Positions 4,197 through 33,274 of a stretch of DNA of 64,000 nucleotides are shown here, piece by piece. Every line of letters begins with the position of its first letter. The stretch's first letter is position 1. Source of the DNA: Spirochaetia bacterium (lineage in GTDB: Bacteria > Spirochaetota > Spirochaetia > UBA9216); assembly GCA_965140585.1 (NCBI GenBank), contig OZ223267.1, positions 475,166 through 539,165 on the forward strand, written 5' to 3'. Position numbers and translations under genes: made by a program. The notes beneath the pieces were generated by a model. It had not been told where the DNA came from. It worked only from the letters and a program-made list of their open reading frames with translations, and made no database searches.

Positions 4197-4307
4197 TGAA
4201 TATAATTTAATATATAACCCAAAAAAATTCTATAATAAGATACATTCTGTTAAATTTATTGACAAATGAGCTTTTGCGCTTCACACTTTTATACAGGAGG
4301 ATGATTT

Positions 4308-7655: not shown

Positions 7656-8434
7656 GATTCACGGCTCCGGGAATGATTGTCGATAACATGGCTCAGTACG
7701 GAGTTGTCTGTGTCAGGCATGCTGTTCAGACTGGCTAAAGCATTGCTTGGATTCTTTATCGCTTCATCCGCCTGTATACTTCCGTCGCTTAGTCTGATTA
7801 TTCTATCGCCGTGCATTGCAATATCCATTTCATGGGTAACCATCACAATTGTTGCGCCCTCGGAATGAAGATTCTGAAACAGAGCCATAATTGATAATCC
7901 TGTTTTTGAGTCGAGATTTCCGGTGGGTTCATCGGCAAATATTATGTCCGGGCTGTTGACAAGAGCCCTGGCTATTGCAACCCGCTGTCTTTGACCGCCT
8001 GAAAGTTCATTTGGTTTATGCGATGCACGATCTGAAAGCCCGACGCGTTCCAGAGCTTCATCAGCCTTTGCTTTCCGTTCTGCCGCAGAGTAGCCGGAAT
8101 ATATCAGGGGAAGTTCAACATTTCTTCTTGCGGATATTCTTGGCAGCAGATTAAATGTCTGGAATACAAACCCGATTCTGCGGTTCCTGACTTCTGCTAG
8201 TTCATTGTCGCTTAGTTTTGAAACATTGCTGCCGTTAAGAAAATAGTCGCCGGAATTCGGCCGATCAAGGCAGCCTATAATATTCATAAGAGTGGATTTA
8301 CCTGAACCGGATGCTCCCATTATGCATACGAACTCATGCTCATTAATTGTGAGATTTATGTCTTTCAGGGCATGAACGCTCATCATTCCCATAGAATAGG
8401 TTTTTTCGATACTTTCAAGTTTTATAATTTCCAA
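7652..8434 (-). CDS. ABC transporter ATP-binding protein (LolD/MacB type)
   Basis: Walker [32 protein letters not shown]. Confidence 0.95.
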
Positions 8435-8437
8435 TTT

Positions 8438-9715: not shown

Positions 9716-11199
9716 TAGTTTTTCTCCATCTCAGGTGCCAGCATTTGAAGCAGATCAAGACCTGATATTTTATAAAGTTCCAGCACTGTCCTGATAATCT
9801 CAGCACGGTTGCTGAATACTGAAAGCTTCGCGTTCTCAAGGTTTATCTGAGTTTCAAACAATTCTTTTCTTGTGGCGGTGCCCAGACTGAATTCAGCCTC
9901 AGTTTTTTCAAGTTCAAACTCAGCTGTTTCCACCTGCAGAATATAAATTTCGTCAAGTCTTGTATTTACTCTGATACTGTCGGTAAGAGACTGAAATTCG
10001 GCTATAGTTGTTTTAATTTGTTCATCGAGCAGATATCCGGCCCTTTCGGCTTCAGATTCTGCAGCTTTTTGCCCAGTGCTGTTCCATTTCCGGATTGGAG
10101 GAGCGGACATGGAAAGTGTGAAACTCAGAGTATCTGCAGCATAGTCATTGTCTATGCCGCTATCTAATGAGTATTCCGCAGAAGCATTCAAATTGAAATG
10201 TCTGTCTTTTTTTTCTACAACAGTATTGGATTCTGCGGATGAAAAGGTAAGTCTTGCGATTCGGATATCCGGTGATGATTCATGCAGATTCTTCTCAAGC
10301 CCGTTAAGTTCAGAATCGTTTATTTCAAGCAGATTGATTTTTTCGAGAACCTTGTCTGATGCATCAATGCCGTAGAGGTTTAAAATCTGCTGCCTGATAA
10401 GATTCAGACTCCGTTCAGCCTTAAGCAGGTCTGTTTCGGACTGGAGCATCGCGGCTTTTGCAGAGTTAAGTTGAGATTTGGTCCAATAGCCGAGTTCAAA
10501 CTCTCTTTCAATTTTTCGGTACTCCTCTCTGTATCCTTCAAGTCTGCTTTTTATAAGTGTAACCTGGTAAGCGGTAATAGACTGATTCAGATAGTCGTTA
10601 GCCGCTTTGATGACAAGCAGATTCCGGTTATTGAGGTATCCGGCTTCAGATATCTTAAGACTGTTGGAAACGATTGTTTCTGATGCCTTATAGATATTAT
10701 CTGTTGTCAGCGGCTGGGCGAAACTAAGACCCAAATCAAGAGAGTTTATATATTCACCTTCTGATTGAGGGTAGGATGGATAGCTTGATTCTTCAATGCC
10801 GCTGTATGATAGAGAATCTGAAACAGAGCCGCTGATTGTTCCCGAGCTGGGCAGAAGCTGAGAGAAGCTGAGACTTGGGCCTGCATAATAAGAATAATTA
10901 TTTTTGATTTCTATGCCTTCCGCATAGCGGGTGTTAAAGTTGTCGCTTCCACCACCTGTCAGATTTAGATTCAGCTGCGGATAGACAGAAGATTTTGAGT
11001 TCTTGTATTCAAAATCAGATCGGTTTAAATATTCCTGATTAGCAGCATACGCCGGATGATTTTTAACCATAGCGTCCAGAAATGAAGAAAATCCGGATAT
11101 GCTTTCTGATATATCAGACTGATTCCGGAAGTCTCCGGTGTCTGAAAATACCGGTAGCGTAACAATAAATAACGATAGAAGAAATAGTAATTTTTTCAT
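9715..11199 (-). CDS. TolC-family outer membrane efflux protein
   Basis: Signal peptide, YPQLNL, two helical repeats (FELG...; FSLGTAT...ELFE); operon context. Confidence 0.8.
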   Translation of the reverse strand: MKKLLFLLSLFIVTLPVFSDTGDFRNQSDISESISGFSSFLDAMVKNHPAYAANQEYLNRSDFEYKNSKSSVYPQLNLNLTGGGSDNFNTRYAEGIEIKNNYSYYAGPSLSFSQLLPSSGTISGSVSDSLSYSGIEESSYPSYPQSEGEYINSLDLGLSFAQPLTTDNIYKASETIVSNSLKISEAGYLNNRNLLVIKAANDYLNQSITAYQVTLIKSRLEGYREEYRKIEREFELGYWTKSQLNSAKAAMLQSETDLLKAERSLNLIRQQILNLYGIDASDKVLEKINLLEINDSELNGLEKNLHESSPDIRIARLTFSSAESNTVVEKKDRHFNLNASAEYSLDSGIDNDYAADTLSFTLSMSAPPIRKWNSTGQKAAESEAERAGYLLDEQIKTTIAEFQSLTDSIRVNTRLDEIYILQVETAEFELEKTEAEFSLGTATRKELFETQINLENAKLSVFSNRAEIIRTVLELYKISGLDLLQMLAPEMEKN

Positions 11200-11209
11200 T
11201 GTTTACCTT

Positions 11210-11971
11210 TTAAAACAGACTTGTCAAAACCAGCCCAACAGCAATCAGCAGAACAGCCATTACTATGGTGAGAGGCAGGGCTTTACGCTGTTCAATCCCG
11301 CAGGAATATCTTAATCCTGCATAAACAAACCCGTAGTAAAGCCAGTTGAAAATATCGGTCAGGGTATCAACAAGATATATCAGTGCTGTTCCTGTTTTTC
11401 CGGGAGTTAATAGCACTGCAAGGCTTATCTGTGAGCTTAAAGCATATTGAAGATCGGCAGTTGTCATTACACCGGCAAGAACCCTTTCATAGTCAGTTAC
11501 CAATGTGATGATATTTTTAATCAGCATCTGGGCAATGCTTATCACTGATACGAAGACTATGATTTTAAATAGATGTCCGAATTTTGTTTTTTCTCTGAAG
11601 ATAAGTGTAAGGATTTTTAAAAGAACCACTGTCAACAGTATGGTTAGCAGGTACCCGATTGAACCTCCAACCGTTGTTGATATCAGGCTTATAGTTTTAG
11701 TTGCGGAAGAGTTGAGGCTTTGGGTAACCTGTTCTTTCTGTGAGTCACTCATAACACCGCTGCGTTCCTCAAGAACCTTTAGCTGTACTCTTACCATGGC
11801 GTCTGAATAGGCTTTACTGCTTAGTATCGGTATAAGCAGGGTAGATGCGATAAGCGCAAAAATGATGACGATAAAAACCGGAAGAAGAATTTTGGTTTTA
11901 TCATTAACTTTACTAAATCCTGACTCCGGAGATTTGAAGATACTGATCCAAAGAGAAATTGTGTTTTTCAT
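11210..11971 (-). CDS. Yip1-family membrane protein (YknW-like)
   Basis: IFKSPESGF start, about 5 TM helices, DIFNW motif; heads the MFP/ABC operon. Confidence 0.75.
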   Translation of the reverse strand: MKNTISLWISIFKSPESGFSKVNDKTKILLPVFIVIIFALIASTLLIPILSSKAYSDAMVRVQLKVLEERSGVMSDSQKEQVTQSLNSSATKTISLISTTVGGSIGYLLTILLTVVLLKILTLIFREKTKFGHLFKIIVFVSVISIAQMLIKNIITLVTDYERVLAGVMTTADLQYALSSQISLAVLLTPGKTGTALIYLVDTLTDIFNWLYYGFVYAGLRYSCGIEQRKALPLTIVMAVLLIAVGLVLTSLF

Positions 11972-12039
11972 TTTTTACCTTCCTGAATATTTACTTTCAA
12001 TTATTAAACACAGTATATCACAAAAAATATTCAAAAAAA

Positions 12040-12069
12040 ATTAGTGTACTAAGAAAATGGTACACTAAT
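12040..12069. promoter_or_regulatory. Inverted-repeat operator, YtrA (GntR)-like, upstream of the ABC export operon
   Basis: ATTAGTGTAC-N10-GTACACTAAT (AGTGTA-N12-TACACT). Confidence 0.55.
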
Positions 12070-12105
12070 AAGGTAAAGTGTATTTCTCTTTATGTCAACT
12101 GGAAT

Positions 12106-12453
12106 CTAAACAGTAATAATTTCATATCCCTTATTCAGGTAATCCATGATTGAAGGGTGGCCGTAAAGTGAAGATTCCATCTTATAACCGTGCTGTTTTG
12201 CGTATTCCAGTGTTCCCATCTTGTTTGCGCATGCCTGGCATACAGAGATTAGTTCTGAATTTTCTTTAAGCTTGCTGTAAATTTTAAGAAAAGGATTGCT
12301 GTCTGAATCCAGAGCAGGCAGCAGAGATGTTGAGCGTCCCTCGATAATAATCTTTACTTCATATCCTTCAGCAAGCATCTGTTCTGCGTTGAACAAGATA
12401 TGGGCGAAACACATAAGCTCACCTGTAAATCCGAAAAATGCTATTTTTTTCAA
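12106..12453 (-). CDS. DsrE/DsrF-like small cytoplasmic protein
   Basis: MCFAH, KIIIEG, VCQACA, GHPS...GYEIIT; TTG start with RBS GGAGG. Confidence 0.7.
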   Translation of the reverse strand: MKKIAFFGFTGELMCFAHILFNAEQMLAEGYEVKIIIEGRSTSLLPALDSDSNPFLKIYSKLKENSELISVCQACANKMGTLEYAKQHGYKMESSLYGHPSIMDYLNKGYEIITV

Positions 12454-12582
12454 ATGAAACCTCCATAAAAGTTAAAAGAATACAATAAAAATTGAACTAT
12501 CCGTTATTATAGCATAATTCTATTGAAATATAGAATTCTGAGTTGTATAATAAAGCACCGTACAGACAAAGGGGATATCATA

Positions 12583-13047
12583 ATGAAGATTGACAAACTT
12601 GATACCGAGATTATCAAGCTTCTGCAGAAAGACGGCAGAATGAAAAGTAAAACCATGAGTAAGATTCTCGGTGTTTCTGAGACTACTATCCGTAACAGGC
12701 TTGGAAAACTTCTTGAAGAAGATGTAATTCAGATAGTTGCGGTAGCTGATCCTCATAAGATAGGTTATGAGATAGTAGGTAGTTTCAAACTGCAGGTTGA
12801 TCCAATAAAAATTGAAAATGTAATAAGTGAGCTTGGGAAAATTGAAGAAATCTGGTATATCGCAAAAGCTACAGGCAGTGTAGATATTGTCACTGAATTT
12901 AATGTGAAATCTATGAATGCTCTCAACGACCTTATTTACAACAGACTGGTTAAAATTGACGGAATAACAAAAACCGAAACATCTATAATTATGAATTATG
13001 AAAAACGTGATTATGCATGGGGTACCGGTATTTCTATTCCTGAATAG
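12583..13047 (+). CDS. Lrp/AsnC family transcriptional regulator
   Basis: DKLDTEIIKLLQKDGR...LGVSETTIRNR HTH; RAM domain TGSVD...ITKTETSI; ATG 12583 follows GGGGA RBS. Confidence 0.92.
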   Translation: MKIDKLDTEIIKLLQKDGRMKSKTMSKILGVSETTIRNRLGKLLEEDVIQIVAVADPHKIGYEIVGSFKLQVDPIKIENVISELGKIEEIWYIAKATGSVDIVTEFNVKSMNALNDLIYNRLVKIDGITKTETSIIMNYEKRDYAWGTGISIPE

Positions 13048-13069
13048 TCTGCATTCCGGTTAAACTGAA

Positions 13070-13119
13070 TATAAATTTAAAAAATGCGGCCTTGAACGGT
13101 CGCATTTTTTAAATTTATA
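13070..13119. terminator. Long inverted repeat / terminator after Lrp
   Basis: TATAAATTTAAAAAATGCGGCC-ttgaac-GGTCGCATTTTTTAAATTTATA, 22-nt arms. Confidence 0.75.
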
Positions 13120-13213
13120 CAATTTTACATATTTAACATTTGTTTTACCTACCATTAACCGCATAAAATTATGCAGGTAATAAATTATATAAACCGATTT
13201 ACAGGAGTATAAG

Positions 13214-14512
13214 ATGAAAAGAAGTCTTTTAACCGGACTCATTTTATTTTGTGTATTTTTTATTCAAACGGTCTCGGCTGAGGAGAGAACTATTTCAATA
13301 GAAGAGTCGCTGAACCTCGCGCTTGAGAACAATGCCGATTTGATTGATGCATCAATATCACTTGAAAGCTCAAAAAGAGCTGAAAGATACAGTTGGAATA
13401 ATTACCTGCCTTCGCTTACTGCTTCACTAAGACTGGCCGGCAATGCGGTATCAGAGAGTTTTTCAACCACTTTAACTCCGGGTATATCATTAAACTATTC
13501 GCTGAACCCGGGAATTGCACAAATCATTTTGCAGCTGCAGCTTGCAGTTGAAAAAGAAGAGATAAGTTTTGAAAGTGCAAGACTCAACCTGATAATGAGT
13601 GTTGAAACAGAATTCTATTATCTATTGACAGCTGAGAGCAATCTTAAAATAGAAAAAAACAACATTGAACTGGCTAAAAAGCAGCTTGAACAGACAACTG
13701 CAAAGTACAACAGCGGAATGGCTTCTGAGCTTCAGGTTCTGCAGGCACGTGTTAATGTTGAAAACCTGAAGCCTTCATACAGTTCCCTTGTTTCAAGTTA
13801 CAATAATCGTTTGAAGGAGTTTCTTCTTGTTCTGGGGCTTGATCCGCAGGAAGATGTAAAGCTTTCAGGAAGCCTTGAGTTTGAAGATATTGTACCGGAT
13901 TCAGAAGTTCTTATCAGCGCATATCTAATGAACCGTACCGATATAAGGACTAATAAGAAAAATCTTGAGGTGCTGAACAGTAATTTAAAGCTTGCAAATG
14001 CGAACGGATTTTCTCCAACCTTTTCATTATCAGCTTCATGGAGTGATGCGGTTTCTGATCCATTTTCCGGTGATACATGGAGCAGCCGCAGTTACGGCGG
14101 AAGCACCTCTGTCAGTCTGGGCGTAAGCCTCGGACTCGATGATTTTATCCCGGGATCATCAACTAAGATTGATATTGAAGAGCTTAAAGACTCAATAAGT
14201 CAGGCAGAACTTGCTTTGAACAGTCTTGTTCAGGAGGCCGAGCTTGAAGTTCTGAATCTTATTGATTCAATAAATACTGACAAGGAAAATGTCGAGTTGT
14301 CCAAACTGAACCTGGAGCTTGCACAGAAGTCATATGATATGACCGCAAGAAGTTTCGAGCGTGGAACAACGGATCGTATTACTCTTGACGATTCACAGCA
14401 GGATCTGCTTACAGCACAGCAGAATCTTATTGAAAGCAGATATGAATATCTTGCAGATCTAATAAGTCTGAGCGGTGCGCTCGGTCTTGATTCTATAGAA
14501 TATCTAAAATAA
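13214..14512 (+). CDS. TolC-family outer membrane protein
   Basis: Signal peptide, LALENN, YLPSL, YNSGMASELQVLQA, FERGTTD repeats. Confidence 0.88.
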   Translation: MKRSLLTGLILFCVFFIQTVSAEERTISIEESLNLALENNADLIDASISLESSKRAERYSWNNYLPSLTASLRLAGNAVSESFSTTLTPGISLNYSLNPGIAQIILQLQLAVEKEEISFESARLNLIMSVETEFYYLLTAESNLKIEKNNIELAKKQLEQTTAKYNSGMASELQVLQARVNVENLKPSYSSLVSSYNNRLKEFLLVLGLDPQEDVKLSGSLEFEDIVPDSEVLISAYLMNRTDIRTNKKNLEVLNSNLKLANANGFSPTFSLSASWSDAVSDPFSGDTWSSRSYGGSTSVSLGVSLGLDDFIPGSSTKIDIEELKDSISQAELALNSLVQEAELEVLNLIDSINTDKENVELSKLNLELAQKSYDMTARSFERGTTDRITLDDSQQDLLTAQQNLIESRYEYLADLISLSGALGLDSIEYLK

Positions 14513-14520
14513 TCAGTTGA

Positions 14521-15546
14521 ATGGATAAGGAGAAAATTATGGCAAAGAATGTTGCAGAGAGGATAATACAGATTGTTCTTCTGTTGATCATAGCCGCCGG
14601 ATTCGGCGGAATCATATATACTTTAGGCGGTTCGGGAAGCAGTGCCGGCGGACCTCCGGGAAGAATGCCGGGGGCTTCAAGCGGTGCTCCTTCCGGAATG
14701 CCTGCCGCCTTCGGAAAAAGTTCTTCAAATACCACCGCAACAACAGTTGCAGTCGAGGCTGAGATTTCCGAGCTTGGTGATGTTAACCAGTTCATACGTG
14801 TGAACGGTGATGTCGTCAGTGATGTCTCGGTTGAGATTTATCCGGATGTTTCCGGTAAACTGATTGAGCGGAAAATACAGCTTGGCAGCTATGTCAAGAA
14901 GGGTGATGTCATAGCGGTTGTTGATCCGTCAACCCCTGGTGTAGTTTACAGTAAAAGCAGCGTTGTTTCCACAATCAGCGGTACTGTTACAGCGGTGAAT
15001 GCCACGGTCGGTGATACTGTAAGTACAGGCAGTTCAATTGCTGAGGTCGGGGATCTTTCAAATCTGTCACTCGTAACCTATGTACCTGAAAGATATATCA
15101 GTTATCTTAAAACTGGTCTGACTGCAGAAGTAACATTTGAAGCTTTCGAAGATCAGGTTTTTCAGGCTCGGGTCGTTCAGCTTAATCCTGTAGTTGATAC
15201 AAGTTCACGTTCACTCGAAATTAAGCTTGAAATACTTAACCCGGACTCAGGAATACGGGCCGGAATGTTTTCTTCAATGAAACTGATCACTAGGGAAAGT
15301 AAGAACTGTATTTCAGTTCTTAACACCGCCCTTTCTTCCTATTACGAAGATACAGTAGTCTTTGTGCTTAATGATGACGACACCGTTGAACGCAGAGTAG
15401 TAACGACAGGTCTTGTTTCCGATTCCAGAACTGAAATTACCAGCGGACTTGAAGAAGGCGAAATTGTTATTACCCAGGGAACATCATCACTTACCGATGG
15501 AACAGCAGTAAGGGTTGTTAATGAGCTTGAAGGCCTGGAGGGCTAA
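14521..15546 (+). CDS. RND efflux periplasmic adaptor subunit
   Basis: TM anchor, PDVSGK, lipoyl motifs, VPERY, PVVDTSSR, GMF, EITSGL. Confidence 0.88.
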   Translation: MDKEKIMAKNVAERIIQIVLLLIIAAGFGGIIYTLGGSGSSAGGPPGRMPGASSGAPSGMPAAFGKSSSNTTATTVAVEAEISELGDVNQFIRVNGDVVSDVSVEIYPDVSGKLIERKIQLGSYVKKGDVIAVVDPSTPGVVYSKSSVVSTISGTVTAVNATVGDTVSTGSSIAEVGDLSNLSLVTYVPERYISYLKTGLTAEVTFEAFEDQVFQARVVQLNPVVDTSSRSLEIKLEILNPDSGIRAGMFSSMKLITRESKNCISVLNTALSSYYEDTVVFVLNDDDTVERRVVTTGLVSDSRTEITSGLEEGEIVITQGTSSLTDGTAVRVVNELEGLEG

Positions 15547-18500
15547 ATGAATGTTACTGATTTATCGGTAAAACGGCCTGTTACTATCCTTGTTGTAACA
15601 CTTTTACTTGTCGGGCTTGCTGTTTTTATGGTGCCAAGCCTTGCGGTTGAGATGTTTCCGGATACCGACATGCCTGTAATTATGATAAGAACCACTTATT
15701 CGGGAGCCAGCCCTGAGGAGGTCGAGGAAAGTGTGACCTCACTCCTTGAGCAGCAGCTTTCAAATGTAAGCGGAATTGAAAATATAACTTCTACTTCCAG
15801 CGAGGGAAGCAGTACGATCCGTCTTGAGTTTGGTTATGATATAGATCTTGATGATGCAACAAACGACATACGTGATTCACTCGAGCGTGTAAATTCAGCT
15901 CTTCCGGACGGGTCCGGATCTCCGCAGATTATGAAGTTCAGTGCATCCAGTATGCCTATACTCAGGTTGATTGTTACCGGAAATGAAACAGCCGACACTC
16001 TGACAGCCCTTGCAGAGGACACAATACAGCCACGGCTTGAACGAATAGTCGGAGTTGCCTCTGCAGAGGTGAGTGGTGGTGAAACAAAGGAAGTAAAGGT
16101 TGATGTCTCACTGAACAGGCTTCAGGCCTACGGAATATCGCTTTCATCAGTAAGAACCGCTTTGGCGAACCAGGATGTACTGTTAAGTGCTGGCGATCTT
16201 ACTAAGGACGGTATGGAATATACCCTGAGGTTTAATGAAACCTTTGAAACCCTTGATGATATGAGACGTACCGTCATTACAAATATTTCAACCCAGGATT
16301 CAACAGGGTCTGTCAACAGATCGAATGTCGTCCGTCTTGAAGACATTGCTGATGTCTACATGGGTACGGAAGATTCAAGCAGAAGGGTATACATAAACGG
16401 TACTTCATCTGTTTCAATCCGTGTAATGAACGAGACTGATACAAATACTGTTCAGATAGCTGAGGCCGTACGTGCCGAGCTGCCTTCAATAAATGCTGAT
16501 CTGCCGACCGGTGTTAAACTGCAGATTCTGTATGACCAGACCACAATGATTTCAAGTCTGCTCAACCAGGTATACCAGAATGCTATTCAGGGCGGTATTC
16601 TGGCCATGATTATTTTGCTGCTGTTTTTAAGAAATATAAAAACTACCCTGGTAATAGGTGTTTCGATCCCTGTGTCACTGTTCATTACCCTGGGTGCAAT
16701 GTATTTCTTTGATCTTACCCTGAACATGATTTCACTTACCGGACTTATAATGGGCCTCGGAATGATAGTCGATAACTCGATTGTTATTCTGGAAAATATT
16801 TACAAGTACCGGGAAAGGGGTGCAAAGCTGAAGCCCTCGGCCATCCTCGGTTCAAGAGAGATGGTTACTGCCATCACTGCATCAACGCTCACAACTATAT
16901 GTGTATTTATCCCGATGATAATATGGAAAGATGATCTTGAAATGCTTGGTCAGATGTTCCAGGATATGATTTTTACCATAGTAATATCACTTATATCCTC
17001 ACTGCTTGTAGCGCTTATGCTTGTTCCGGCTTTGAGCAGTCATTACATAAAGATATATTCCAAGAAGCAGAAGCCGCTTAAGAATAAGCTTATAATTGCT
17101 TTTGACAACACATTCGAGAAGGGATTTCTTGCTGTTGAAAATGCATATACAAAGGCGCTTGATTTTACACTTAGAAACAGAGCTCTTGTTCTGACCTTTG
17201 TATCTGTTCTGCTGATTATCTCGGTGGCAAAATTTACAACAATGGGAATAGCCTTTCAGCCTTCATCAAATACTGATGACTCTGTTACTGTATCTCTTAC
17301 AATGCCTATAGGTACTTCAATTGACAGAACAGAGACTGTTCTTATGGATATGAAAGATATCATTGAAGAAGAGATTGAAGGCTACGAAAATATTATAGTC
17401 ACAGCCGGATCAGGCGGCGGTTTCGGATCATCAAGTTCATATAAGGGTAATATTGAAATTACTCTGCCTGATGTCGATGAGCAGATTGATAATCCAACAT
17501 CGATAAAACAGAAGTTGAGACCATATCTCAATGAAGTTCCCGACGCGACATTCGAATTTTCTTCAGGCAGACGCTTTGGTGGTTCAAGCGATCCTATTGA
17601 TATTGAAATAATATCAAGTGACCTGACTCTTGCCGGAAACACAGCTTCTGAAATAAGAGATCTGATACGTGAACTTCCGCAGATTGTAGACCCGGTGTCT
17701 TCTCTTGAAAACGGAGCTCCTGAATACCGGATTGTAGTCGATAAAGACAGAGCCGCAGCAATGGGGCTTACTGTAACATCAGTTGCTTCAGCGGTTAATT
17801 ACATGGTTGACGGTTCATCTCCTGTCACTTTCTGGGAGGACGGTGAGGAACTTGATGTAATGGTTCAGCTGCAGGATTCAGATCGCGACAGCATGTCCGA
17901 CCTGGAGTCGCTTACTATAGTGACATCAAGCGGTAAAGAAATACCGCTGTCAAATATTGCCTCTTTTATACTTACTGTCGGACCAGAGGATATCGATCGT
18001 GAAAATGAAAAGAGGGTTGTTCATGTTACATCGGATATCGCCAGCGGCTTAACCGCTACTGAGGTGCTTGCACAGGTAGAAGACTACATTGATTCATCAT
18101 ATGTTGTTCCTGACGGAGTATCAATTTCTTTCGGTGGAGAATCTGAAGATATATCAAGAATGGGCGGCCCGCTTATAATTGTGCTAATAGTTGCCATTAT
18201 CCTCGTATTCGGTGTTATGGCAAGTTTATTTGAATCATTTGTCGACCCCTTTATAATATTCTTCTCGATTCCGCTGATGGTTATTGGTGTAGTAGGTATC
18301 TATACACTAATGGGTGAGACATTCAGCATGTTTTCGGCAGTCGGAATGGTTGCCCTGGTCGGAATTGTAGTAAACAACGGTATTGTTCTTGTAGACTATA
18401 TGAATCTTCTGCGAAACAAGGGCATTCCTTTGATGGAAGCCTGTCACGAAGCCGCAAGAAGCAGATTGAGGCCTGTTCTAATGACCACACTCACTACTGT

Positions 18501-25269: not shown

Positions 25270-26850
25270 ATGGGTATTGGAACATATGAACAGTACAAAG
25301 AACGACTTCTCAAGATGAAGCCAAATGTATATTTACATGGTGAGAAAGTAGACAGATCAGGCGATTGGATTGACGGCGGAACATACGTTATGAAGCAGAC
25401 CTATGACTGCGCTAACGATCCTGACTACGAAGATCTCTGTACTGCTACTTCACATCTTACAGGTGAAAAAATCAGCCGATGGACTCACATTCACAGAACC
25501 CAGGATGACCTTTTTAAAAAGCAGCTCATGACCAGGATTATGTGTCACAGAGTTGGCGGATGTACACAGAGATGTATGGGTACAGATGCTCTCAACGCTC
25601 TTGCTGTTGTTACCTATGATATGGATCAGGCTTGCGGAACTAAGTACCACGAGAGATTCAACAAGTACCTTGAGTACTCACAGAAGAACGACCTTGTTGC
25701 CAACTGTGCTCAGACTGATGTTAAGGGTTCAAGAAATCCGAAATACAAGAGAGCTCACATGCAGCCGGATCCTGACCAGTTCGTACACGTTGTAGAAACA
25801 AACGTAGATGGTATCGGTCTTGACGGAAAGCCCTGTAAGGGTATGATCGTTCGCGGTGCAAAGATTTGTAACTCAAACGCTCCTTATGTTGATGAAATCA
25901 TCGTTACTCCTACCAAGTTCATGGGTTCAGGTGACGAAGCATACGCTTGTGCATTTGCTCTTCCTGCCGACTGGCCCGGCGTTAAGCTCATGGCTCTTCC
26001 CGGAAAGCATCACAAGAGAAAGCATATCGAAGCTCCTTTTGCACTCGTAGGTGATGTTGAATCACTCACAATCTTCGATGATACTTTCGTACCTGAAGAC
26101 AGAATCTTCATGAACGGTCTTGATCAGCCGGATGTTCTTCAGTATGCAGGTTACCTTGCCCTGATGTTCGCTCACTTCCACAGACACTCATACACCGGTT
26201 GTAAGACTGCTGTATCAGAAGTTATTGCAGCACAGGCAGCACTTGTTGCAGACGTTAACGACATTGCTAAAGAGCACCACGTAAGAGAGAAGATCTCTGA
26301 CATCGTTGGTACTGCAGAGCTTGTTTTCGCAGCAGGTCAGGCAGCAGCTCTCAGAGCTGTTCAGTTCCCCAACGGTTCATGGGTACCTGATGAGGTTCTT
26401 ACCAACGCTGGTAGAAAGCTTGCAGGTCAGAAGATTTACCACGAGTACGAAACTCTTGCAGACCTTACAGGCGGTATTTCTGCATCACTTCCTACAGAAG
26501 AATCATTCTATGATCCTGAAACTGCAGAACTCTGTAACAAGTACATCATGAGAAATCCTGCTTACACAGCAGAAGAAACTCACAGAGTTATGAGAATGAT
26601 GGAGAACAAGCTTTGTGACGCTTTCGAAGGTGCACAGGCTGTAGCCGGTGTTCACGGCGGTGGTTCACCTCTTATGGAAACTATCGTTATGATGGCAAGA
26701 TACGATCTCGAAGCTCTTAAAGATATTGCAAAATACCTTGCAGGTTTCGAAGGCTACGAGAAGTGCCCGAGATACGAAAGAGCAACTGCTACACCAAGAG
26801 CTATGCTTGACAGATTCAGAAAAACTGAAATGGGAAAGAAAGAAGCGTAA
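25270..26850 (+). CDS. 4-hydroxybutyryl-CoA dehydratase-like FAD/[4Fe-4S] enzyme (HpaB/AbfD family), divergent
   Basis: CTQRC..D cluster motif, QTDVKG, VRGAK, HRHSYTGCK, HGGGSP; RBS GGAGG; codon usage typical of a highly expressed gene. Confidence 0.8.
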   Translation: MGIGTYEQYKERLLKMKPNVYLHGEKVDRSGDWIDGGTYVMKQTYDCANDPDYEDLCTATSHLTGEKISRWTHIHRTQDDLFKKQLMTRIMCHRVGGCTQRCMGTDALNALAVVTYDMDQACGTKYHERFNKYLEYSQKNDLVANCAQTDVKGSRNPKYKRAHMQPDPDQFVHVVETNVDGIGLDGKPCKGMIVRGAKICNSNAPYVDEIIVTPTKFMGSGDEAYACAFALPADWPGVKLMALPGKHHKRKHIEAPFALVGDVESLTIFDDTFVPEDRIFMNGLDQPDVLQYAGYLALMFAHFHRHSYTGCKTAVSEVIAAQAALVADVNDIAKEHHVREKISDIVGTAELVFAAGQAAALRAVQFPNGSWVPDEVLTNAGRKLAGQKIYHEYETLADLTGGISASLPTEESFYDPETAELCNKYIMRNPAYTAEETHRVMRMMENKLCDAFEGAQAVAGVHGGGSPLMETIVMMARYDLEALKDIAKYLAGFEGYEKCPRYERATATPRAMLDRFRKTEMGKKEA

Positions 26851-26872: not shown

Positions 26873-26908
26873 AAAGGCCCTGTGAAGTTCTGCTTTGCGG
26901 GGCTTTTT
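26873..26908. terminator. Bidirectional terminator between convergent genes
   Basis: AAAGGCCCTGTGAAG-ttctg-CTTTGCGGGGCTTTTT. Confidence 0.7.
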
Positions 26909-27615
26909 TATTCATCATATATTGAGACTATACCATTAATGGTTTTTTTAAGGGATTCCTGAAAGGTGCTGACTGCGCCTTTGGTATCCTTTTCTTTTAT
27001 GTTTTTCACAAGTTCGAGGGTGTTCTTGTACAGCTGCTCATTTCCATGCAGGGTAAAATACTTTTCCCACAACATGGTAGAGAGCTCCTTGAAAGAGTAG
27101 AAGATGACCGGAAGCATTGTGTTGCCTGAAAGAATACAGAGTTCCTGATGGAATATGAAAATTGTTTCAGCAGAGTTTTCAGGGGTTCTGGATTTTCCAA
27201 AATTATCCGCCAGCTGCATCAGCACTCCTATATCAGATTCTGATACCGCAGGTACAAGCAGCTCAAGCGCCAGTGTCTCGAAGACCAGCCTGATCTCGAG
27301 AAGTGATTTCATTTCAGTTTTTTTCAGATTGCCGCCGTTGTACCGCAGAATGGCCATCAGAGTTTCAACAGTTCCCCGCCTGTGGTAGTCAGCTACAAAT
27401 GCTCCGATTCTCGGCTTTATTTCAACAAAGCCGATTCCGGCGAGTTCTGTAAGTCCTGAATTAACTACGGCGCGGCTGACGCCCATTTTCTCAGCCAGTT
27501 CTCTCTCAGGGGGAAGTCTGTCGCCTATACTTAGTTTTCCTGAAATTATCATATTCTCAATTTCTCTTACAAAAAGATCCTTTAATGAAGGGGAGGATAG
27601 TCTTGAAAACTCCAT
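26908..27615 (-). CDS. GntR family (FadR subfamily) transcriptional regulator
   Basis: GDRLPPERELAEKMGVSRAVV...EIKPRIGAFV wHTH; FCD domain EIRLVFE, FHQEL..SGN; ATG 27615 follows AGGAG. Confidence 0.92.
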   Translation of the reverse strand: MEFSRLSSPSLKDLFVREIENMIISGKLSIGDRLPPERELAEKMGVSRAVVNSGLTELAGIGFVEIKPRIGAFVADYHRRGTVETLMAILRYNGGNLKKTEMKSLLEIRLVFETLALELLVPAVSESDIGVLMQLADNFGKSRTPENSAETIFIFHQELCILSGNTMLPVIFYSFKELSTMLWEKYFTLHGNEQLYKNTLELVKNIKEKDTKGAVSTFQESLKKTINGIVSIYDE

Positions 27616-27631
27616 AAAAATGCTCCTTGTA

Positions 27632-27644
27632 CTGGTACAACCAG
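27632..27644. promoter_or_regulatory. FadR-type operator (autoregulatory)
   Basis: CTGGT-aca-ACCAG, the TGGT-N3-ACCA FadR-family pattern, just downstream of a minus-strand TTGATT-N17-TATAAT promoter (27686-27658). Confidence 0.65.
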
Positions 27645-27725
27645 AAACCAAAAAATAATTATATTATGTAAAAATCTATAAATCAATATATTTAAACAAA
27701 ATAAAATTCTATAGATAAATATTTA

Positions 27726-27765
27726 TTGACAATACCAGAATGTAGATTTAGACTGGATCTGTCAA
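27726..27765 (+). promoter_or_regulatory. Sigma70 promoter of the Ni-permease/hypB operon, overlapped by an inverted repeat
   Basis: TTGACA-N17-TAGACT; arms TTGACAATACCAG (27726-27738) and CTGGATCTGTCAA (27753-27765) are inverted repeats. Confidence 0.7.
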
Positions 27766-27780: not shown

Positions 27781-28455
27781 ATGAATATTACCTTCTCTAT
27801 GCTGCTGACTGCAGCATTCACAGCGGGAATACTGCATACTCTGACAGGTCCCGATCATTACATCCCGTTTATTGTCCTATCAAGTTCCGGAAACTGGTCT
27901 ATGAAGAAAACGCTCGGCATGACTTTAATCTGTGGACTGGGGCACATTCTTTCAGCAGTCCTCGTTGCATATGGAGCACTGAAAATCAGTTCAATCATGC
28001 TAAGCCTTGAAACGATTGAAGCAATCCGAGGCGGTTTTGCAGCCTGGGCATTGACTGTCTTCGGGTTTACCTATGCGCTTTGGGGACTTAGAAAGATTAT
28101 ATCAGGAAGAAAAGCTGTGAAGGAACATACTGAGAATGTTGGACAAAACAGCAATTATGGTAAAAAGCAGTCTGTACTTGGCTGGACGCTTTTTCTAATC
28201 TTTGTCTTCGGGCCCTGTGAACCTCTCATTCCCTTCATCCTTTTTCCGGAAACTTCAGTATCAGTCAATCAGATTATTGCTGTAACTTCAGTTTTCGGTG
28301 CAGCAACCCTGCTCACAATGCTTACAGTAGTAACATTTGCAACAGCAGGTTTAAAAAGATTTCCGCTGCATAATTTTTTCAGCCGCTTCGGACATACTCT
28401 TGCCGGCAGTATTGTAGGCTGCTGCGGACTTGCTATGACCTTTCTTGGACTTTAG
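27781..28455 (+). CDS. Nickel/cobalt permease-like membrane protein (UreH/NiCoT/DsbD_2-like)
   Basis: GILHTLTGPDHY and GLGH His motifs, GPCEP, 6 TM helices, FGHTLAG. Confidence 0.75.
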   Translation: MNITFSMLLTAAFTAGILHTLTGPDHYIPFIVLSSSGNWSMKKTLGMTLICGLGHILSAVLVAYGALKISSIMLSLETIEAIRGGFAAWALTVFGFTYALWGLRKIISGRKAVKEHTENVGQNSNYGKKQSVLGWTLFLIFVFGPCEPLIPFILFPETSVSVNQIIAVTSVFGAATLLTMLTVVTFATAGLKRFPLHNFFSRFGHTLAGSIVGCCGLAMTFLGL

Positions 28456-28476
28456 TAAGGCTTAAGGAGTACGACA

Positions 28477-29148
28477 ATGGATAAATACAAGGTTATAGAA
28501 ATAAAAAAAAATGTTTTTGAAAGCAACGATAATGAAGCTGCAAAGCTCAGAGCAGGTCTAAAAAAAGACGGGGTTTTCCTTCTTAACCTGATGTCTTCAC
28601 CTGGATCCGGAAAAACTACTACAGTGATGCAGACAATAGAAAAACTAAGAGCCAGTTTGAATATTCGCGTACTGGAGGCTGACCTTGATTCTGATGTTGA
28701 TGCTGCAACTGTTCACAGTTCAGGGGTCAAGGTTCTTCAGCTTCATTCAGGCGGAATGTGTCATTTGAATGCAGATATGGTCAGACAGGGGCTGACTGAA
28801 CTGGGCACAGAGGATACAGACCTTGTTATCCTGGAGAATATTGGAAATCTGATATGTACTGCAGAGTTTGATACAGGAGCCGCAAAAAACGCAATGATAC
28901 TCAGTGTGCCGGAAGGTGATGACAAGCCGCTGAAATATCCAGCGATGTTCAGAATGACTGATGTTCTTATAGTTAACAAGATTGATGCAATGGAATTCTT
29001 TGATTTTAATCTTGAGCGGCTTGAAGGATATGTGAGGAAACTGAATCAGGATGTGAAGATATTTCCCGTATCCGCGAAGACGGGTGAAGGCATTGATGCC
29101 TGGACTGCCTGGCTAAAAAATGAAGTTGAACTTTGGAGGAAATCCTGA
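28477..29148 (+). CDS. hypB: Nickel-insertion GTPase HypB
   Basis: NLMSSPGSGKTT, GGMCHL, ENIGNLIC, SVPEGDDKPLKYP, NKID, VSAKTGEG. Confidence 0.93.
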   Translation: MDKYKVIEIKKNVFESNDNEAAKLRAGLKKDGVFLLNLMSSPGSGKTTTVMQTIEKLRASLNIRVLEADLDSDVDAATVHSSGVKVLQLHSGGMCHLNADMVRQGLTELGTEDTDLVILENIGNLICTAEFDTGAAKNAMILSVPEGDDKPLKYPAMFRMTDVLIVNKIDAMEFFDFNLERLEGYVRKLNQDVKIFPVSAKTGEGIDAWTAWLKNEVELWRKS

Positions 29149-31838
29149 TGGACTACAGAGAAAAGATTCTCGATCTTGCAAATCATATAAACAGAACAAA
29201 GAAAGGCTCTTCAAGGGCAATTAAACCAGGAGATCCTGAATACATGATTCTGGAACCTGTTGTTACTGATGACATGGCTGAGGCTGCTATGTGCCTTGAG
29301 CTGCGGAAACCTAAAAGTGCAGTCGAAGTTGCATTGCTCTGCGGCAGGGATTCTGCTGATACTTCATCACTGCTTTGGGAACTTGCAATGGCCGGAGTCT
29401 GTTTTGTAAATGAAATAGACGGCATTGACAAGTACTGGCTTGAAACCTGGATTCCGGGTGTCATGGAAATGATGACCAACAATAAAGAGAATGTCGCCAG
29501 ATTTCCGCAGATAGCTGAAGCTTTCGAGGCTTACGGCCGGGTTCGCGGGCCTCAGTCGGCAGGAAATTTTCCGGTTGGTGTAGGTCTAATGCGGGTTATT
29601 CCAATCGAACGCTCTATTGAAGGTGAGACTCGCAAGGCCTCCTATGAGGAAGTTTCGAAATACCTGAATGAAAACGACCGCTTTTCGGTTTCCGACTGTG
29701 CCTGCCGTACAGCCCGTGAGGCAATGGGTGAAGGCTGCGGCCATCTGAAAGAGGACATGTGCATACAGATGGGACATGCAGCGGAGTACTACATTCGAAC
29801 TGGCCGTGGCCGTGAGATAGATCGCAACGAAGCCTTCGAAATCATCAAAAGGGCTGAAGATAATGGACTGATGCACCAGATACCCAATACCGACGGCTCG
29901 GGTAACACGCATGCTATATGCAACTGCTGCGGCTGCTCCTGTCTTTCTCTAAGAACAGCAGAGATGTTTATCAACAACGATATGGTCCGTTCAAATTATG
30001 TATCTGATGTAGATATTGATAACTGTGTGGCCTGCGGAGAATGTGTTGAAGTCTGTCCGGTAAATGCGCTTCAGCTTGGTCATAAACTCTGTTCTGAGAC
30101 ACCCCAGAACATCCCGGTACGTGAAACCCCCGAGGTCACAGAATGGGGACCTGAAAAGTGGAATCCTGATTACCGCATAAACAGGCAGGTCGTTCTTGAA
30201 TCGGGAACCAGTCCCTGCAAGGCTGAATGCCCTGCGCATATCGGTATTCAGGGATATGTGAAGCTGGCTTCACAGGGTAAGTATACAGAGGCTCTGGAGC
30301 TAATAAAAACCGAGAATCCCTTTCCTGCTGTCTGCGGCCGTATCTGTCCTCGAAAATGCGAATCTGCGTGTACCAGGGGAGATATAGATGACCCAATTGC
30401 GATTGATGATATTAAGAAGTATATTGCCGAGAAGGACCTTCATGCAGAAAGCAGATTTATTCCCCGAAAGCGCCACGACTATGGTAAGAAAATTGCTGTT
30501 ATAGGCTCCGGTCCGGCAGGGCTTTCCTGTGCTTACTACCTTGCGGTAGACGGTTACAAAGTTACTGTTTTTGAAAAAAACAGCAGACCCGGCGGAATGC
30601 TCACAACAGGTATTCCCTCATTCAGGCTCGAAAAGGATGTGGTAAGCGCTGAAATAGAAATTATTAAAGAACTCGGCGTAGAAATCCGCTGCGGGGTGGA
30701 TGTCGGAAAAGACGTTTCAATTGCCGGACTTAGAAAAGATGGATTTGAAGCCTTCTATCTTGCAATCGGTGCACAGTCGGGAAGAGTCCTTGGAATTGAA
30801 GGTGAGGACGCTGAAGGTGTCATTACCGGAGTTGATTTTCTGCTGAATGTGAGCTGTGGGACTCTGAATGATTTCACAGGCAGAACCGTTGTAATAGGCG
30901 GCGGCAATGTTGCAATTGATGTAGCCCGGACTGCTGTGAGGTCAGGGGCTGATAAAACCAAAATGTTCTGCCTTGAAAGCAGGGACCAGATGCCGGCGCT
31001 TGAAGAAGAAGTTGATGAGGCGCTTTCTGAAGGAATAGAAATTAACAATTCCTGGGGCCCGAAACGAATAATAACCGAAAACGGAAAAGTGAAGGCTGTT
31101 GAGTTTCGAAAGTGCATATCGGTGTTTAATTCCGATGGAAGGTTTTCACCTGTATACGACGAATCGAATACTCTTGCTGTTGAAGCTGATAATGTTCTGA
31201 TTTCTGTAGGACAGGCAATTTACTGGGGGAATCTGCTTGATGGTTCCGGTGTAAAACTGAATACCAACAATACCGTGATTGCTGATCCGGAAACATGGCA
31301 GACGGGTGAGGCTGATATTTTTGCCGGAGGCGATGCCGTAACTGGACCAAAATTTGCTATTGATGCAATTGCGTTAGGCAAGGAGGGCGCTGTTTCCATC
31401 CACCGCTACGTACAGGCGGGGCAGAGTCTTGTTTATGGACGAACTAAACGCAACTATAAACCTCTTGATAAGGAAAACCTCATCCTTGCAGGATTCGACA
31501 GAATGCCAAGGCAGAGCACATCTCATGTGAGCGGAGATGATTCGAAAAACACCTTCAGAGATCTGCGGGAAACCTTTACCGAAGAACAGGTCATCAAAGA
31601 AACTGAACGCTGTCTTGGCTGCGGGGCAGTTGTTGTTGATAAATATATGTGTGTCGGCTGCGGAGCCTGTACTCTGAAGTGCCGCTTTGATGCAATAAAA
31701 CTCGAAAGAAAATACGACGCTGAAGGCCTTGTACTTACAGATATAAGACCTGCTGTTATGAAGCAGATGGTGAAGCGGAAGCTGAAAATAGCTGTTAACA
31801 AACCGATCAAGGCTGTTAAGTCGGCTCTGGGCGGGTGA
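29148..31838 (+). CDS. Large FAD/Fe-S oxidoreductase: Cys-rich N-terminal domain, ferredoxin motifs and GltD-like pyridine nucleotide module
   Basis: CACR..C..MC..CNCCGCSC; CVACGECVEVCP; PCKAECP..CGRICPRKCESAC; GSGPAG; GGGNVA; AGGD; RCLGCG..CVGCGACTLKC. ATG overlaps the hypB stop (TGATG). Confidence 0.88.
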   Translation: MDYREKILDLANHINRTKKGSSRAIKPGDPEYMILEPVVTDDMAEAAMCLELRKPKSAVEVALLCGRDSADTSSLLWELAMAGVCFVNEIDGIDKYWLETWIPGVMEMMTNNKENVARFPQIAEAFEAYGRVRGPQSAGNFPVGVGLMRVIPIERSIEGETRKASYEEVSKYLNENDRFSVSDCACRTAREAMGEGCGHLKEDMCIQMGHAAEYYIRTGRGREIDRNEAFEIIKRAEDNGLMHQIPNTDGSGNTHAICNCCGCSCLSLRTAEMFINNDMVRSNYVSDVDIDNCVACGECVEVCPVNALQLGHKLCSETPQNIPVRETPEVTEWGPEKWNPDYRINRQVVLESGTSPCKAECPAHIGIQGYVKLASQGKYTEALELIKTENPFPAVCGRICPRKCESACTRGDIDDPIAIDDIKKYIAEKDLHAESRFIPRKRHDYGKKIAVIGSGPAGLSCAYYLAVDGYKVTVFEKNSRPGGMLTTGIPSFRLEKDVVSAEIEIIKELGVEIRCGVDVGKDVSIAGLRKDGFEAFYLAIGAQSGRVLGIEGEDAEGVITGVDFLLNVSCGTLNDFTGRTVVIGGGNVAIDVARTAVRSGADKTKMFCLESRDQMPALEEEVDEALSEGIEINNSWGPKRIITENGKVKAVEFRKCISVFNSDGRFSPVYDESNTLAVEADNVLISVGQAIYWGNLLDGSGVKLNTNNTVIADPETWQTGEADIFAGGDAVTGPKFAIDAIALGKEGAVSIHRYVQAGQSLVYGRTKRNYKPLDKENLILAGFDRMPRQSTSHVSGDDSKNTFRDLRETFTEEQVIKETERCLGCGAVVVDKYMCVGCGACTLKCRFDAIKLERKYDAEGLVLTDIRPAVMKQMVKRKLKIAVNKPIKAVKSALGG

Positions 31839-31842
31839 TGCT

Positions 31843-32184
31843 TTGCACGAACTTGGAGTTGTAATCGAAGTGATTAAAACCGTTGAGGAAATTGCAGCGG
31901 AAAACGGGGTAAGCAGTATTGAGTCAATGGTTCTTCAGATAGGAGAACTTTCATCAATAATTCCCCGTTATGTGGAGGATTGCTACCCCGCAGCCGCCGA
32001 CGGAACACTTCTCGAGAATACCAGGCTTGAAATTGAGATACTTCCCGGAAACGGGCTCTGCCGCGGCTGCGGTAAGGTATTCAACCTTGCAGCAGAGAAA
32101 CACGTTTGTCCATCCTGTTCGGCTTCGGATTTTGAAATCCTCGGCGGAAAGGAATTTATGATCAAAGAAATTGTCGCCTGTTAG
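31843..32184 (+). CDS. hypA: Nickel metallochaperone HypA
   Basis: N-terminal MHE Ni site, IGELS, CRGC and CPSC Zn site, GKEF. Confidence 0.93.
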   Translation: MHELGVVIEVIKTVEEIAAENGVSSIESMVLQIGELSSIIPRYVEDCYPAAADGTLLENTRLEIEILPGNGLCRGCGKVFNLAAEKHVCPSCSASDFEILGGKEFMIKEIVAC

Positions 32185-32218
32185 GCCGGCATGAAAATCT
32201 ATTTATATGGAGTAATAG

Positions 32219-33220
32219 ATGTTTACTTTTAATACTGCCGCCGGTGCAAGTATCGCGTCGGCCTGGGGAATGTGGATAGTTGTATTCGCGGCCCTGTTTA
32301 TTCTTAATGAACTTGCACGCAGGTGGAAGGCTGCGGGATTCACTGCCTTTGTAGTTCTGCCTGCAGTACTCACTGTTTTGTGGTTTACAGTTATGAGTGA
32401 TACCACATATACCGACTGGTTTCACCTTGCAAAGGTGTACTCATCAACTGCCGGCTGTATTGGCTTCTGGCTGATACGTCACCTAAAAGGAACAAACAAA
32501 CTTACAGGCAGGCAATGGAGACTTTCAGACAAGAAACTCGCTCTGATATTTCCTCCGCTCATCCTCGCCATCAATATTCTTGAAGCATGTGTACGGGATT
32601 TTCAGATTGGTCTTCAGTACACCGGTGGAGGAATAACTGCCGATGAGGGAGTTTATGTTCTTGGCGGTATATGGAATTATATGAACGGAATTGCAGGACT
32701 CCTTAATATTATAGCTATCACAGGATGGTTTGGTATTGTAATCAGGCGACAGACAGACCGGGATAAAAGCCGCGACATGCTCTGGCCTGATATGCTCTGG
32801 TTCTGGATCATTGCCTATGATATCTGGAATTTCACCTACACATACAACTGTCTGCCTCATCACGCATGGTACTGTGGATTTGCTTTACTGCTTGCACCTA
32901 CACTTTGTGCTTTCACAGTTGGAAAGGGCGCCTGGCTTCAGCATCGTGCTCAGACTCTGGCTCTCTGGTGCATGTTCGCACAGACCTTTCCGGCATTCCA
33001 GGATGAGGGTATGTTTGCTGTTACCTCTACCTACAAGCCGGGGCTGTATATGTTCTGGGGAGTTCTTTCGCTTGCAGTTAACATTGCAGTAATTGTTTAT
33101 ATGCTTATCAGGGTTAAGAAAACCGGACGCAATCCATACAAAGGTGAATTGTACACCGATAACCCCAAGTATCTTGAAGTTAAGGCGCTTGCAGAAGAAC
33201 CGGCAGGTGCGGCTTTATAA
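32219..33220 (+). CDS. DUF5692-like integral membrane protein
   Basis: About 8 TM helices; WFHLAKVYS, PPLILAINILEA, WNYMNGIAG, DMLWPDM..FWIIAYDIWNF, WLQHRAQTL. Confidence 0.75.
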   Translation: MFTFNTAAGASIASAWGMWIVVFAALFILNELARRWKAAGFTAFVVLPAVLTVLWFTVMSDTTYTDWFHLAKVYSSTAGCIGFWLIRHLKGTNKLTGRQWRLSDKKLALIFPPLILAINILEACVRDFQIGLQYTGGGITADEGVYVLGGIWNYMNGIAGLLNIIAITGWFGIVIRRQTDRDKSRDMLWPDMLWFWIIAYDIWNFTYTYNCLPHHAWYCGFALLLAPTLCAFTVGKGAWLQHRAQTLALWCMFAQTFPAFQDEGMFAVTSTYKPGLYMFWGVLSLAVNIAVIVYMLIRVKKTGRNPYKGELYTDNPKYLEVKALAEEPAGAAL

Positions 33221-33251: not shown

Positions 33252-33274
33252 ACCGCGTCTTCGGGCGCGGTTTT
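33252..33274 (+). terminator. Terminator closing the hypB-hypA operon
   Basis: ACCGCGTC-TTCG-GGCGCGGT followed by TTT (cUUCGg tetraloop). Confidence 0.8.

Follow-up and report, generated by a model that had tools for sequence, protein, structure and literature searches.

A conserved hypB–oxidoreductase–hypA locus in a Spirochaetia bacterium joins an IsrA-type iron-sulfur flavoprotein to its own, putatively nickel-delivering chaperones

A 64,000-nucleotide (nt) stretch of contig OZ223267.1 from a Spirochaetia bacterium (GCA_965140585.1, positions 475,166 to 539,165; hereafter the window) encodes an iron-sulfur flavoprotein of 896 amino acids (aa) whose gene stands between hypB and hypA. Judged by its architecture and neighbourhood, which fit the published description point by point, the protein is a member of 'clade 9' of the family of IsrA, the 901-aa isoprene-induced oxidoreductase and putative isoprene reductase of Acetobacterium wieringae ISORED-2 (Kronen et al. 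2023, PMC10134865). We consider it probable, at about 60%, that the locus specifies such an enzyme together with its own HypA and HypB, that these load it with nickel, and that it reduces a difficult substrate. This HypA/HypB-client interpretation is well supported by comparative genomics, and it has already been published: an earlier reading of the window, made from its letters without database searches (the sequence-only reading), had offered the locus as a candidate new nickel enzyme system, while PMC10134865 already contains the family, the neighbouring HypA, HypB and DUF5692, and the idea of nickel insertion. That source describes clade 9 homologues of approximately 900 aa in many phyla, gives neighbour frequencies for 988 homologues (HypA 0.73, HypB 0.56, DUF5692 0.40, TetR 0.21), and puts forward a Cys6 'cluster V', with the CxC pairs C180/C182 and C254/C256, as the place where nickel is inserted by HypA and HypB. 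In a 2026 preprint, hypA is up 373-fold and hypB 585-fold with isoprene; two 2026 preprints report strong hypA/hypB induction with isoprene in Pelotomaculum and still call for biochemistry.

The arrangement of the three central genes is conserved well beyond spirochaetes. Scanning of species-representative genomes led to 409 confirmed relatives and to 80 loci, whose oxidoreductases are 66–75% identical to the query and which span, by record title, spirochaetes, clostridia, Deltaproteobacteria, Chloroflexi, Thermotogae and Shewanella. A same-strand hypB gene precedes the oxidoreductase by at most 300 nt in 72 of the 80 loci, a hypA gene lies at most 1200 nt downstream in 70, and both chaperones are present somewhere in the locus in 69. 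Seven loci are without hypB and nine without hypA, two of the latter reaching a contig edge. DUF5692 is encoded near the oxidoreductase in 45 loci and a GntR homologue in 27. The nearest locus (L016), by its title from an Oceanispirochaeta metagenome-assembled genome (MAG), matches the window in all six genes and in their order. The order hypB–oxidoreductase–hypA is therefore conserved across phyla, as the synteny check proposed with the sequence-only reading had envisaged. As an observation in its own right, one locus (L029:978-6418) carries tandem oxidoreductase paralogues, 70% and 59% identical to the window's protein, between one hypB and one hypA.

The distribution of HypD, a marker of the [NiFe]-hydrogenase maturation set, indicates that the cluster is not confined to genomes in which a hydrogenase would need these chaperones; such confinement was a refuting outcome named with the sequence-only reading. 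HypD was matched in 24 genomes of one set of 48 hosts and in 16 of another set of 30, which, with one genome counted twice, leaves 39 of 77 scored hosts with a match and 38 without (two others were unscored, and many hosts are MAGs whose completeness is unknown). By record title, nine HypD-less hosts are isolates (L015, L028, L037, L038, L039, L042, L045, L050 and L055). All 11 HypD-less genomes searched for HypA have exactly one match above the cut-off, and in the three for which coordinates were compared (G003, G004, G038) this sole HypA is the one beside the oxidoreductase. HypD-positive genomes have at least two HypA in 34 of 39 cases. Chaperone-lacking loci with at least 4 kb of flanking sequence are found in HypD-positive genomes more often than the others (8/9 vs. 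31/68; Fisher one-sided p = 0.016, with related genomes not being independent), which fits borrowing of the general HypA/HypB where these are present.

A similar picture emerges within the window's own class, for which 61 genomes including its own were searched. The oxidoreductase occurs in eight of these, always with a HypA on the same contig at a distance of approximately 2–3 kb, and seven of the eight have no HypD match. HypD occurs in the absence of the oxidoreductase in a further seven genomes, six of which carry a HypA above the cut-off; of the 46 that lack both HypD and the oxidoreductase, one does. The pairing also extends to paralogues: in five genomes with several HypA, extra oxidoreductases of approximately 900 aa (35–55% identity) have a HypA of their own in all five cases (two each in G048 and G014, one in G037), approximately 1.7–2 kb from the match to the N-terminal domain on the same contig and strand. 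Chaperone and oxidoreductase are thus co-inherited, and the pairing is specific to each paralogue. Together with two stand-alone N-domain proteins that adjoin a HypA, this links HypA to the N-terminal domain of the oxidoreductase rather than to its GltD-like module.

The chaperones themselves form a distinct lineage. HypB (28477–29148, plus strand), a G3E GTPase, scores 234 bits with TIGR00073 (cut-off 121.2) and is devoid of a His-rich or CxxC N-terminal extension. Its residues C95, H96 and C127 recur in every one of the 72 linked homologues and likewise in HypB of hyp operons, while at position 90 the window protein has His, as do 71 of the 72 linked homologues, vs. Asn in 19 of 21 hyp-operon HypB. 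For comparison, the hyp operons of 20 HypD-positive genomes that also bear the cluster were fetched, and hypA and hypB were present in 20/20. In a tree of 94 HypB, a branch with a Shimodaira-Hasegawa-like approximate likelihood ratio (SH-aLRT) of 100 parts the 21 hyp-operon HypB, together with a second HypB from locus L071, from the window HypB and the 71 remaining oxidoreductase-linked HypB; this tree comes from a quick search, and four hyp-operon rows sit on long branches. The window HypB groups among Spirochaetota. In this tree the linked HypB thus form a distinct group, of the kind that the sequence-only reading had suggested looking for. The second HypB of L071 (L071:9650-10324) lies downstream of hypA, is of the hyp-operon type (38% identity, clustering with hyp-operon HypB), and its genome has no HypD match.

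HypA (31843–32184, plus strand, 113 aa) matches PF01155 with 105.4 bits (cut-off 28.9). Its TTG start at 31843 yields the M-H-E N-terminus typical of HypA, and H2 and E3 of this motif as well as C73, C76, C89 and C92 of the zinc site, formed by two CxxC motifs, are invariant in 39 sequences. Most linked HypA additionally share Cys47, within 'CYPAA', and a C-terminal Cys113 in an Ala-Cys end. Identity to the window HypA is 55–69% for linked HypA and 26–35% for those of hyp operons.

The oxidoreductase (29148–31838, plus strand, in an open frame from 29133) combines a redox module of known type with an N-terminal domain that has no Pfam family. Residue numbers in this paragraph count from 29145, and subtracting one gives the numbering from the ATG. 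Pfam matched no family ahead of residue ~285; beyond it, the protein matches PF14691 (Fer4_20, E 1.6e-22), PF07992 (Pyr_redox_2, E 1.7e-26) and, in two stretches, PF00037 (Fer4). Residues ~348–760 (30186–31424) form a module of the type found in GltD, NfnB and dihydropyrimidine dehydrogenase (DPD), with two [4Fe-4S] clusters and Rossmann folds for flavin adenine dinucleotide (FAD) and NAD(P)H; the closest PDB chains are 9bov_A (1.2e-108), 4ylf_B (6.3e-71) and 5jca_L (1.6e-67). Ferredoxin motifs at residues 289–309 and ~823–846, the latter in the C-terminal Cys-rich stretch at 31599–31724, point to extra [4Fe-4S] sites, and C823, C826, C836, C839, C842 and C846 do not vary among 39 full-length sequences, whose alignment has a mean column identity of 61%. 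The N-terminal domain (29148–29999) consists of a winged-helix-like part followed by a Cys-rich part. An AlphaFold2 (AF2) model of residues 1–345, built from an 86-row alignment, is confident (predicted local distance difference test, pLDDT, 89.2; predicted template modelling score, pTM, 0.88), and a fold search with it against the PDB gave no match at E ≤ 1e-3; the first ~140 residues weakly resemble winged-helix regulators (best E 0.019). Across the 86 sequences C185, C206, C259, C261 and C266 do not vary, C187 and R188 hardly do, and C198, H244, C262 and C264 are kept in most; in the 39 full-length sequences C185, C187, C206, C259, C261 and C266 are all invariant. We propose this Cys-rich domain as the site of a nickel-dependent centre.

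The protein belongs to a large family, with at least 7997 scored relatives. Of the best 120 homologues, 119 measure 891–927 aa and are 70–81% identical to the query over 97–100% of its length; the remaining one (P0048) has 692 aa and 95% identity over 77% of the query. The N-terminal domain is represented in 2477 sequences at E ≤ 1e-3 and in 1275 at E ≤ 1e-10, in architectures of ~900 aa and ~360 aa. In a genome of the same genus, the orthologous gene (G080:C4:2487047-2488074; 96–97% identity) is split over two frames of 231 and 701 aa, reflecting either a frameshift or a sequencing error.

Other nickel enzymes that HypA and HypB might serve were sought in the window's own genome (4.85 Mb, 10 contigs, 98.5% complete). 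Profile searches gave no match to a [NiFe] large subunit (PF00374), to HypD (PF01924) or to a urease alpha subunit, HypC, HypE and HypF not being searched separately, and so neither a [NiFe] hydrogenase nor a urease emerged as the client. The single Prismane match is a hydroxylamine reductase (873.6 bits, vs. 31.1 bits with the carbon monoxide dehydrogenase (CODH) model), by which CODH was rejected as well. The remark of the sequence-only reading that the hydrogenase in the window is of the [FeFe] type was right: a Fe_hyd_lg_C match lies at ~55530–56438, one of eight such matches in the genome. There is one HypA match and one copy of the N-terminal domain. A group-4-like complex on contig 2 was likewise considered and discarded as a nickel enzyme; its Complex1_49kDa match passes the NuoD model NF004739 (371.8 bits vs. 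360) and has no Cys pair at the C-terminus. This Mrp-type membrane complex (L012, G000:C2:259000-277000, open reading frames 7477–17481, minus strand) includes the NuoD-like large subunit of 393 aa, which keeps the N-terminal CxxC, and, adjoining it, a 614-aa protein matched by NuoI models at its N-terminus and by GltD-type models over the remainder.

Taken with the synteny, the HypD-less hosts and the HypB tree, these searches, which found no other client, favour the claim of the sequence-only reading that the oxidoreductase is the HypA/HypB client; its nickel content, the other part of that claim, is something that we infer. Dedicated chaperones very probably have as their client the oxidoreductase or, more narrowly, its Cys-rich N-terminal domain. 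By analogy with the family, NAD(P)H would reduce the FAD of the GltD/NfnB-like module, and electrons would pass through the four ferredoxin-type [4Fe-4S] sites to the Cys-rich centre of the N-terminal domain. During maturation, the GTPase HypB and HypA would load Ni(II) into or beside this centre. The mature enzyme might then reduce a difficult substrate, by analogy with IsrA one with an unactivated C=C bond and not necessarily isoprene; isoprene reduction is not implied for the window enzyme. A bolder version, to which we give somewhat less than even odds, is that the Cys-rich domain holds an unprecedented Ni-Fe-S centre supplied by client-specific HypA and HypB, and that the sub-clade linked to GntR and DUF5692 uses this centre on some compound that is not isoprene, with the regulator sensing it and DUF5692 handling it at the membrane.

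Several observations weigh against a nickel enzyme with private chaperones. Neither chaperone is nearby in 5 of the 80 loci (L017, L024, L046, L049, L073), and 5 of the 39 HypD-positive genomes have just one HypA. The window HypA falls below the cut-off of the NCBIfam equivalog TIGR00100 (74.8 vs. 88.1). Further neighbours in the 80 loci that might name the substrate include none of general occurrence and no conserved catabolic enzyme. The comparison with IsrA (VUZ27132.1) is through its published description. The Cys set is equally conserved in the ~900-aa proteins and in the stand-alone ~360-aa architecture, and of 11 stand-alone N-domain proteins (375–389 aa, five genomes) two, in G048 and G059, have an adjacent HypA, while the contig of the other nine, all in G037, bears no HypA match. 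Because the stand-alone forms are often without HypA, the Cys-rich site can in some cases do without a private chaperone, and it may simply be an ordinary Fe-S cluster. Among the top-ranked literature matches, in a search that left subscription journals mostly outside, there is no nickel measurement for the IsrA family.

The last points also suit a different explanation, in which the HypA- and HypB-like proteins partner the oxidoreductase without delivering nickel, in a zinc-, iron-, assembly-related or structural role, and the Cys-rich site is an ordinary Fe-S cluster. The clade-specific residues Cys47 and Cys113 of HypA and His90 of HypB may, moreover, shift metal specificity. To our knowledge, however, every characterised HypA/HypB pair handles nickel, and the window proteins keep both the M-H-E of HypA and the Cys-His...Cys of HypB, which are named as nickel-binding sites in PMC10134865. 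We therefore regard a nickel-free role as unlikely, at perhaps one chance in several, and prefer nickel loading of the oxidoreductase.

It is far less probable that HypA and HypB serve a distant nickel enzyme and adjoin the oxidoreductase for regulatory or historical reasons. Such clients could, for instance, be the LarA-like proteins, with seven Lar_N matches in the genome, none of them on the window's contig (G000:C7:660596-661186, C1:135736-136335, C6:577339-577935, C9:241636-242199 and three weaker places). They have the look of nickel-pincer enzymes that lack the genes known to build their cofactor: with no match to LarC (PF01969) and none to LarE above the cut-off in this genome, a nickel insertase for them is missing. 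LarC, however, is a cyclometallase acting on a pyridinium precursor, unlike the known functions of HypA and HypB. The adjacency conserved in 69 of 80 loci across phyla, the private HypA of each extra ~900-aa paralogue examined, and the way HypA tracks the oxidoreductase or HypD in the window's class likewise argue against a distant client. Equally improbable is a module for nickel homeostasis or storage with the flavoprotein as a redox sensor or regulator, as its winged-helix-like N-terminus and the possible nickel permease in the same operon might suggest, since the permease-like gene recurs in just one of the 80 loci, 896 aa with four or five Fe-S sites and FAD and NAD(P)H binding are typical of a catalytic oxidoreductase, and IsrA is induced by its substrate, isoprene (PMC10134865).

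The genes of the locus are closely packed on the plus strand. Direct reading of the sequence confirmed the gene positions, the hypB/oxidoreductase overlap and the short hypA junction that had been reported for the window. The hypB TGA (29146–29148) overlaps the oxidoreductase ATG at 29148 (cTGATGg, with a shared A), and a GGAGGA lies 8 nt 5' of this ATG; because of the overlap and the GGAGGA, we assign the oxidoreductase 896 aa. Its TGA (31836–31838) is followed 4 nt on by the hypA TTG, and the remaining intergenic gaps measure 21 nt and 34 nt. The first gene of the set encodes a 224-aa polytopic DsbD_2/UreH-like membrane protein (27781–28455) and the last a DUF5692 membrane protein (32219–33220). 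One promoter and one terminator had been claimed to enclose the set, and both were found: a promoter-like TTGACA-17-TAGACT (27726–27754, plus strand), which is a consensus match alone, and, 32 nt past the DUF5692 stop, a terminator-like hairpin with an 8-bp stem, six GC pairs and a T-rich tail (33252–33271). They bracket the genes and are consistent with one operon. The promoter match itself is not distinguishing: because promoter-like sites are not enriched in the region (17 observed vs. 13.2 ± 4.9 expected from shuffles), the operon call relies on gene spacing and synteny rather than on this match.

A divergent gene (26908–27651, minus strand) encodes a GntR/FCD protein (PF00392, E 9.2e-18; PF07729, E 3.8e-6), which is likely the local regulator. 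Both promoter hexamers are covered by an imperfect inverted repeat, TTGACAATACCAG / CTGGATCTGTCAA (27726–27738 / 27753–27765). The repeat at 27726–27765 is a candidate operator for this regulator, with chance being a possible origin in such an AT-rich region. The DUF5692 protein is securely assigned to its family (PF18948, E 4.8e-118) and has many invariant polar and aromatic residues; its AF2 model (pLDDT 84.4) consists mainly of long helices and gave no match at E ≤ 1e-3 in a PDB fold search. Its role is possibly substrate uptake or that of a membrane partner, and together with the GntR/FCD protein it suggests a small molecule that is sensed and perhaps imported. The membrane protein at the start of the operon had been labelled a Ni/Co-type permease, a label poorly matched by a marginal hit to PF13386 (DsbD_2, 25.6 bits vs. 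cut-off 24.9) and by the presence of the gene in a single related locus (L016). In an Atlas look-alike list it resembles DsbD_2 clusters, and a 'UreH nickel transporter' cluster comes at rank 21. It is an accessory rather than a core part, and possibly a nickel permease.

Other neighbours were noted around the window's cluster and its relatives. Just upstream of the window's cluster lies a gene for a 526-aa protein of the HpaB family (25270–26850; PF11794, PF03241), with its own terminator-like hairpin at 26873–26907; in strict anaerobes, this family includes 4-hydroxybutyryl-CoA dehydratases. In 11 of the 80 related loci, an amine-oxidase-like flavoprotein (~419 aa) and a helix-turn-helix protein (~360 aa) are encoded upstream of hypB (L021, at 2641–4972, L037, L047, L048, L053, L057, L061, L069, L070, L076 and L080). 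Recurrent extra neighbours are generic ATPases of ATP-binding cassette (ABC) systems (19 loci), ABC transporter fusion proteins (6), TetR (6) and chemoreceptors (5).

If the family binds nickel, it would form a new class on the short list of nickel enzymes and extend the client types of HypA and HypB beyond hydrogenase and Helicobacter urease. The enzyme may perform hard reductions, such as those of unactivated C=C bonds, which would be relevant to isoprene and related hydrocarbons in anoxic habitats. With the nickel hypothesis in print since 2023 (PMC10134865), the window opens no new question; it adds genomic support in the form of a host without the other client genes searched, a distinct HypB group, and a private HypA for each ~900-aa paralogue examined. 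The highly conserved, phylum-crossing sub-clade is also a good target for biochemistry.

Among known systems, the NfnB, GltD and DPD enzymes resemble the window protein over residues ~348–760 (up to 830), with E values from 1e-108 to 1e-53 (9bov_A, 8oh5_C, 9n5u_A, 4ylf_B, 5jca_L, 1gt8_A), and the model NF009410 reaches 466.9 bits, under its cut-off of 516. They have no counterpart of its first ~285 residues, the Cys-rich domain included, and we know of no enzyme of the NfnB/GltD/DPD type that needs HypA or HypB. The HypA and HypB of [NiFe] hydrogenases and Helicobacter urease share with the window pair the M-H-E, the zinc finger, the Cys-His...Cys of the G-domain and TIGR00073. The window genome differs from such systems in that searches for the large subunit, HypD and urease gave no match in it, the linked HypB stand apart in the tree, and His90 of HypB and Cys47 and the C-terminal Cys113 of HypA set the clade apart from hyp-operon chaperones. 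In acetyl-CoA synthase (ACS) and CODH, a dedicated NTPase delivers nickel to a Cys-ligated Fe-S cluster, or to a place next to it, where the electron-transfer chain reaches the substrate. The NTPases concerned, AcsF and CooC, are MinD-type ATPases, whereas HypB is a G3E GTPase and acts with HypA. PDB sequence and fold searches gave no similarity of the oxidoreductase to CODH or ACS, and the comparison with the ACS A-cluster and AcsF and the CODH C-cluster and CooC, taken from the discussion of Kronen et al. (PMC10134865), is one of how the systems work.

The closest counterpart is IsrA itself. With 901 aa vs. 896 aa, the two proteins share an unannotated N-terminal domain of ~270 aa with two CxC motifs (C184/C186 and C258/C260 in the ATG numbering of the window protein), the two [4Fe-4S] clusters of DPD domain II, the FAD/NAD(P)-binding domain and two further ferredoxin motifs. 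Both adjoin hypA and hypB, have DUF5692 as a frequent neighbour of their family and occur in a host without [NiFe] hydrogenase, as stated for the ISORED-2 genome in PMC10134865. Names of clusters holding divergent ~900-aa representatives yielded just one ('FAD-dependent oxidoreductase', Acutalibacteraceae), and none identifies IsrA. The isr operon proper comprises isrA, two hypA, hypB and a ferredoxin with an IsrA-like N-domain (PMC10134865), whereas the window operon has one hypA and no ferredoxin gene, and its genome a single copy of the N-domain; the window locus in turn has the GntR/FCD regulator, DUF5692 and the UreH/DsbD_2-like membrane protein. The sub-clade to which the window protein belongs is unusually conserved, with 66–75% identity over 80 loci from several phyla.

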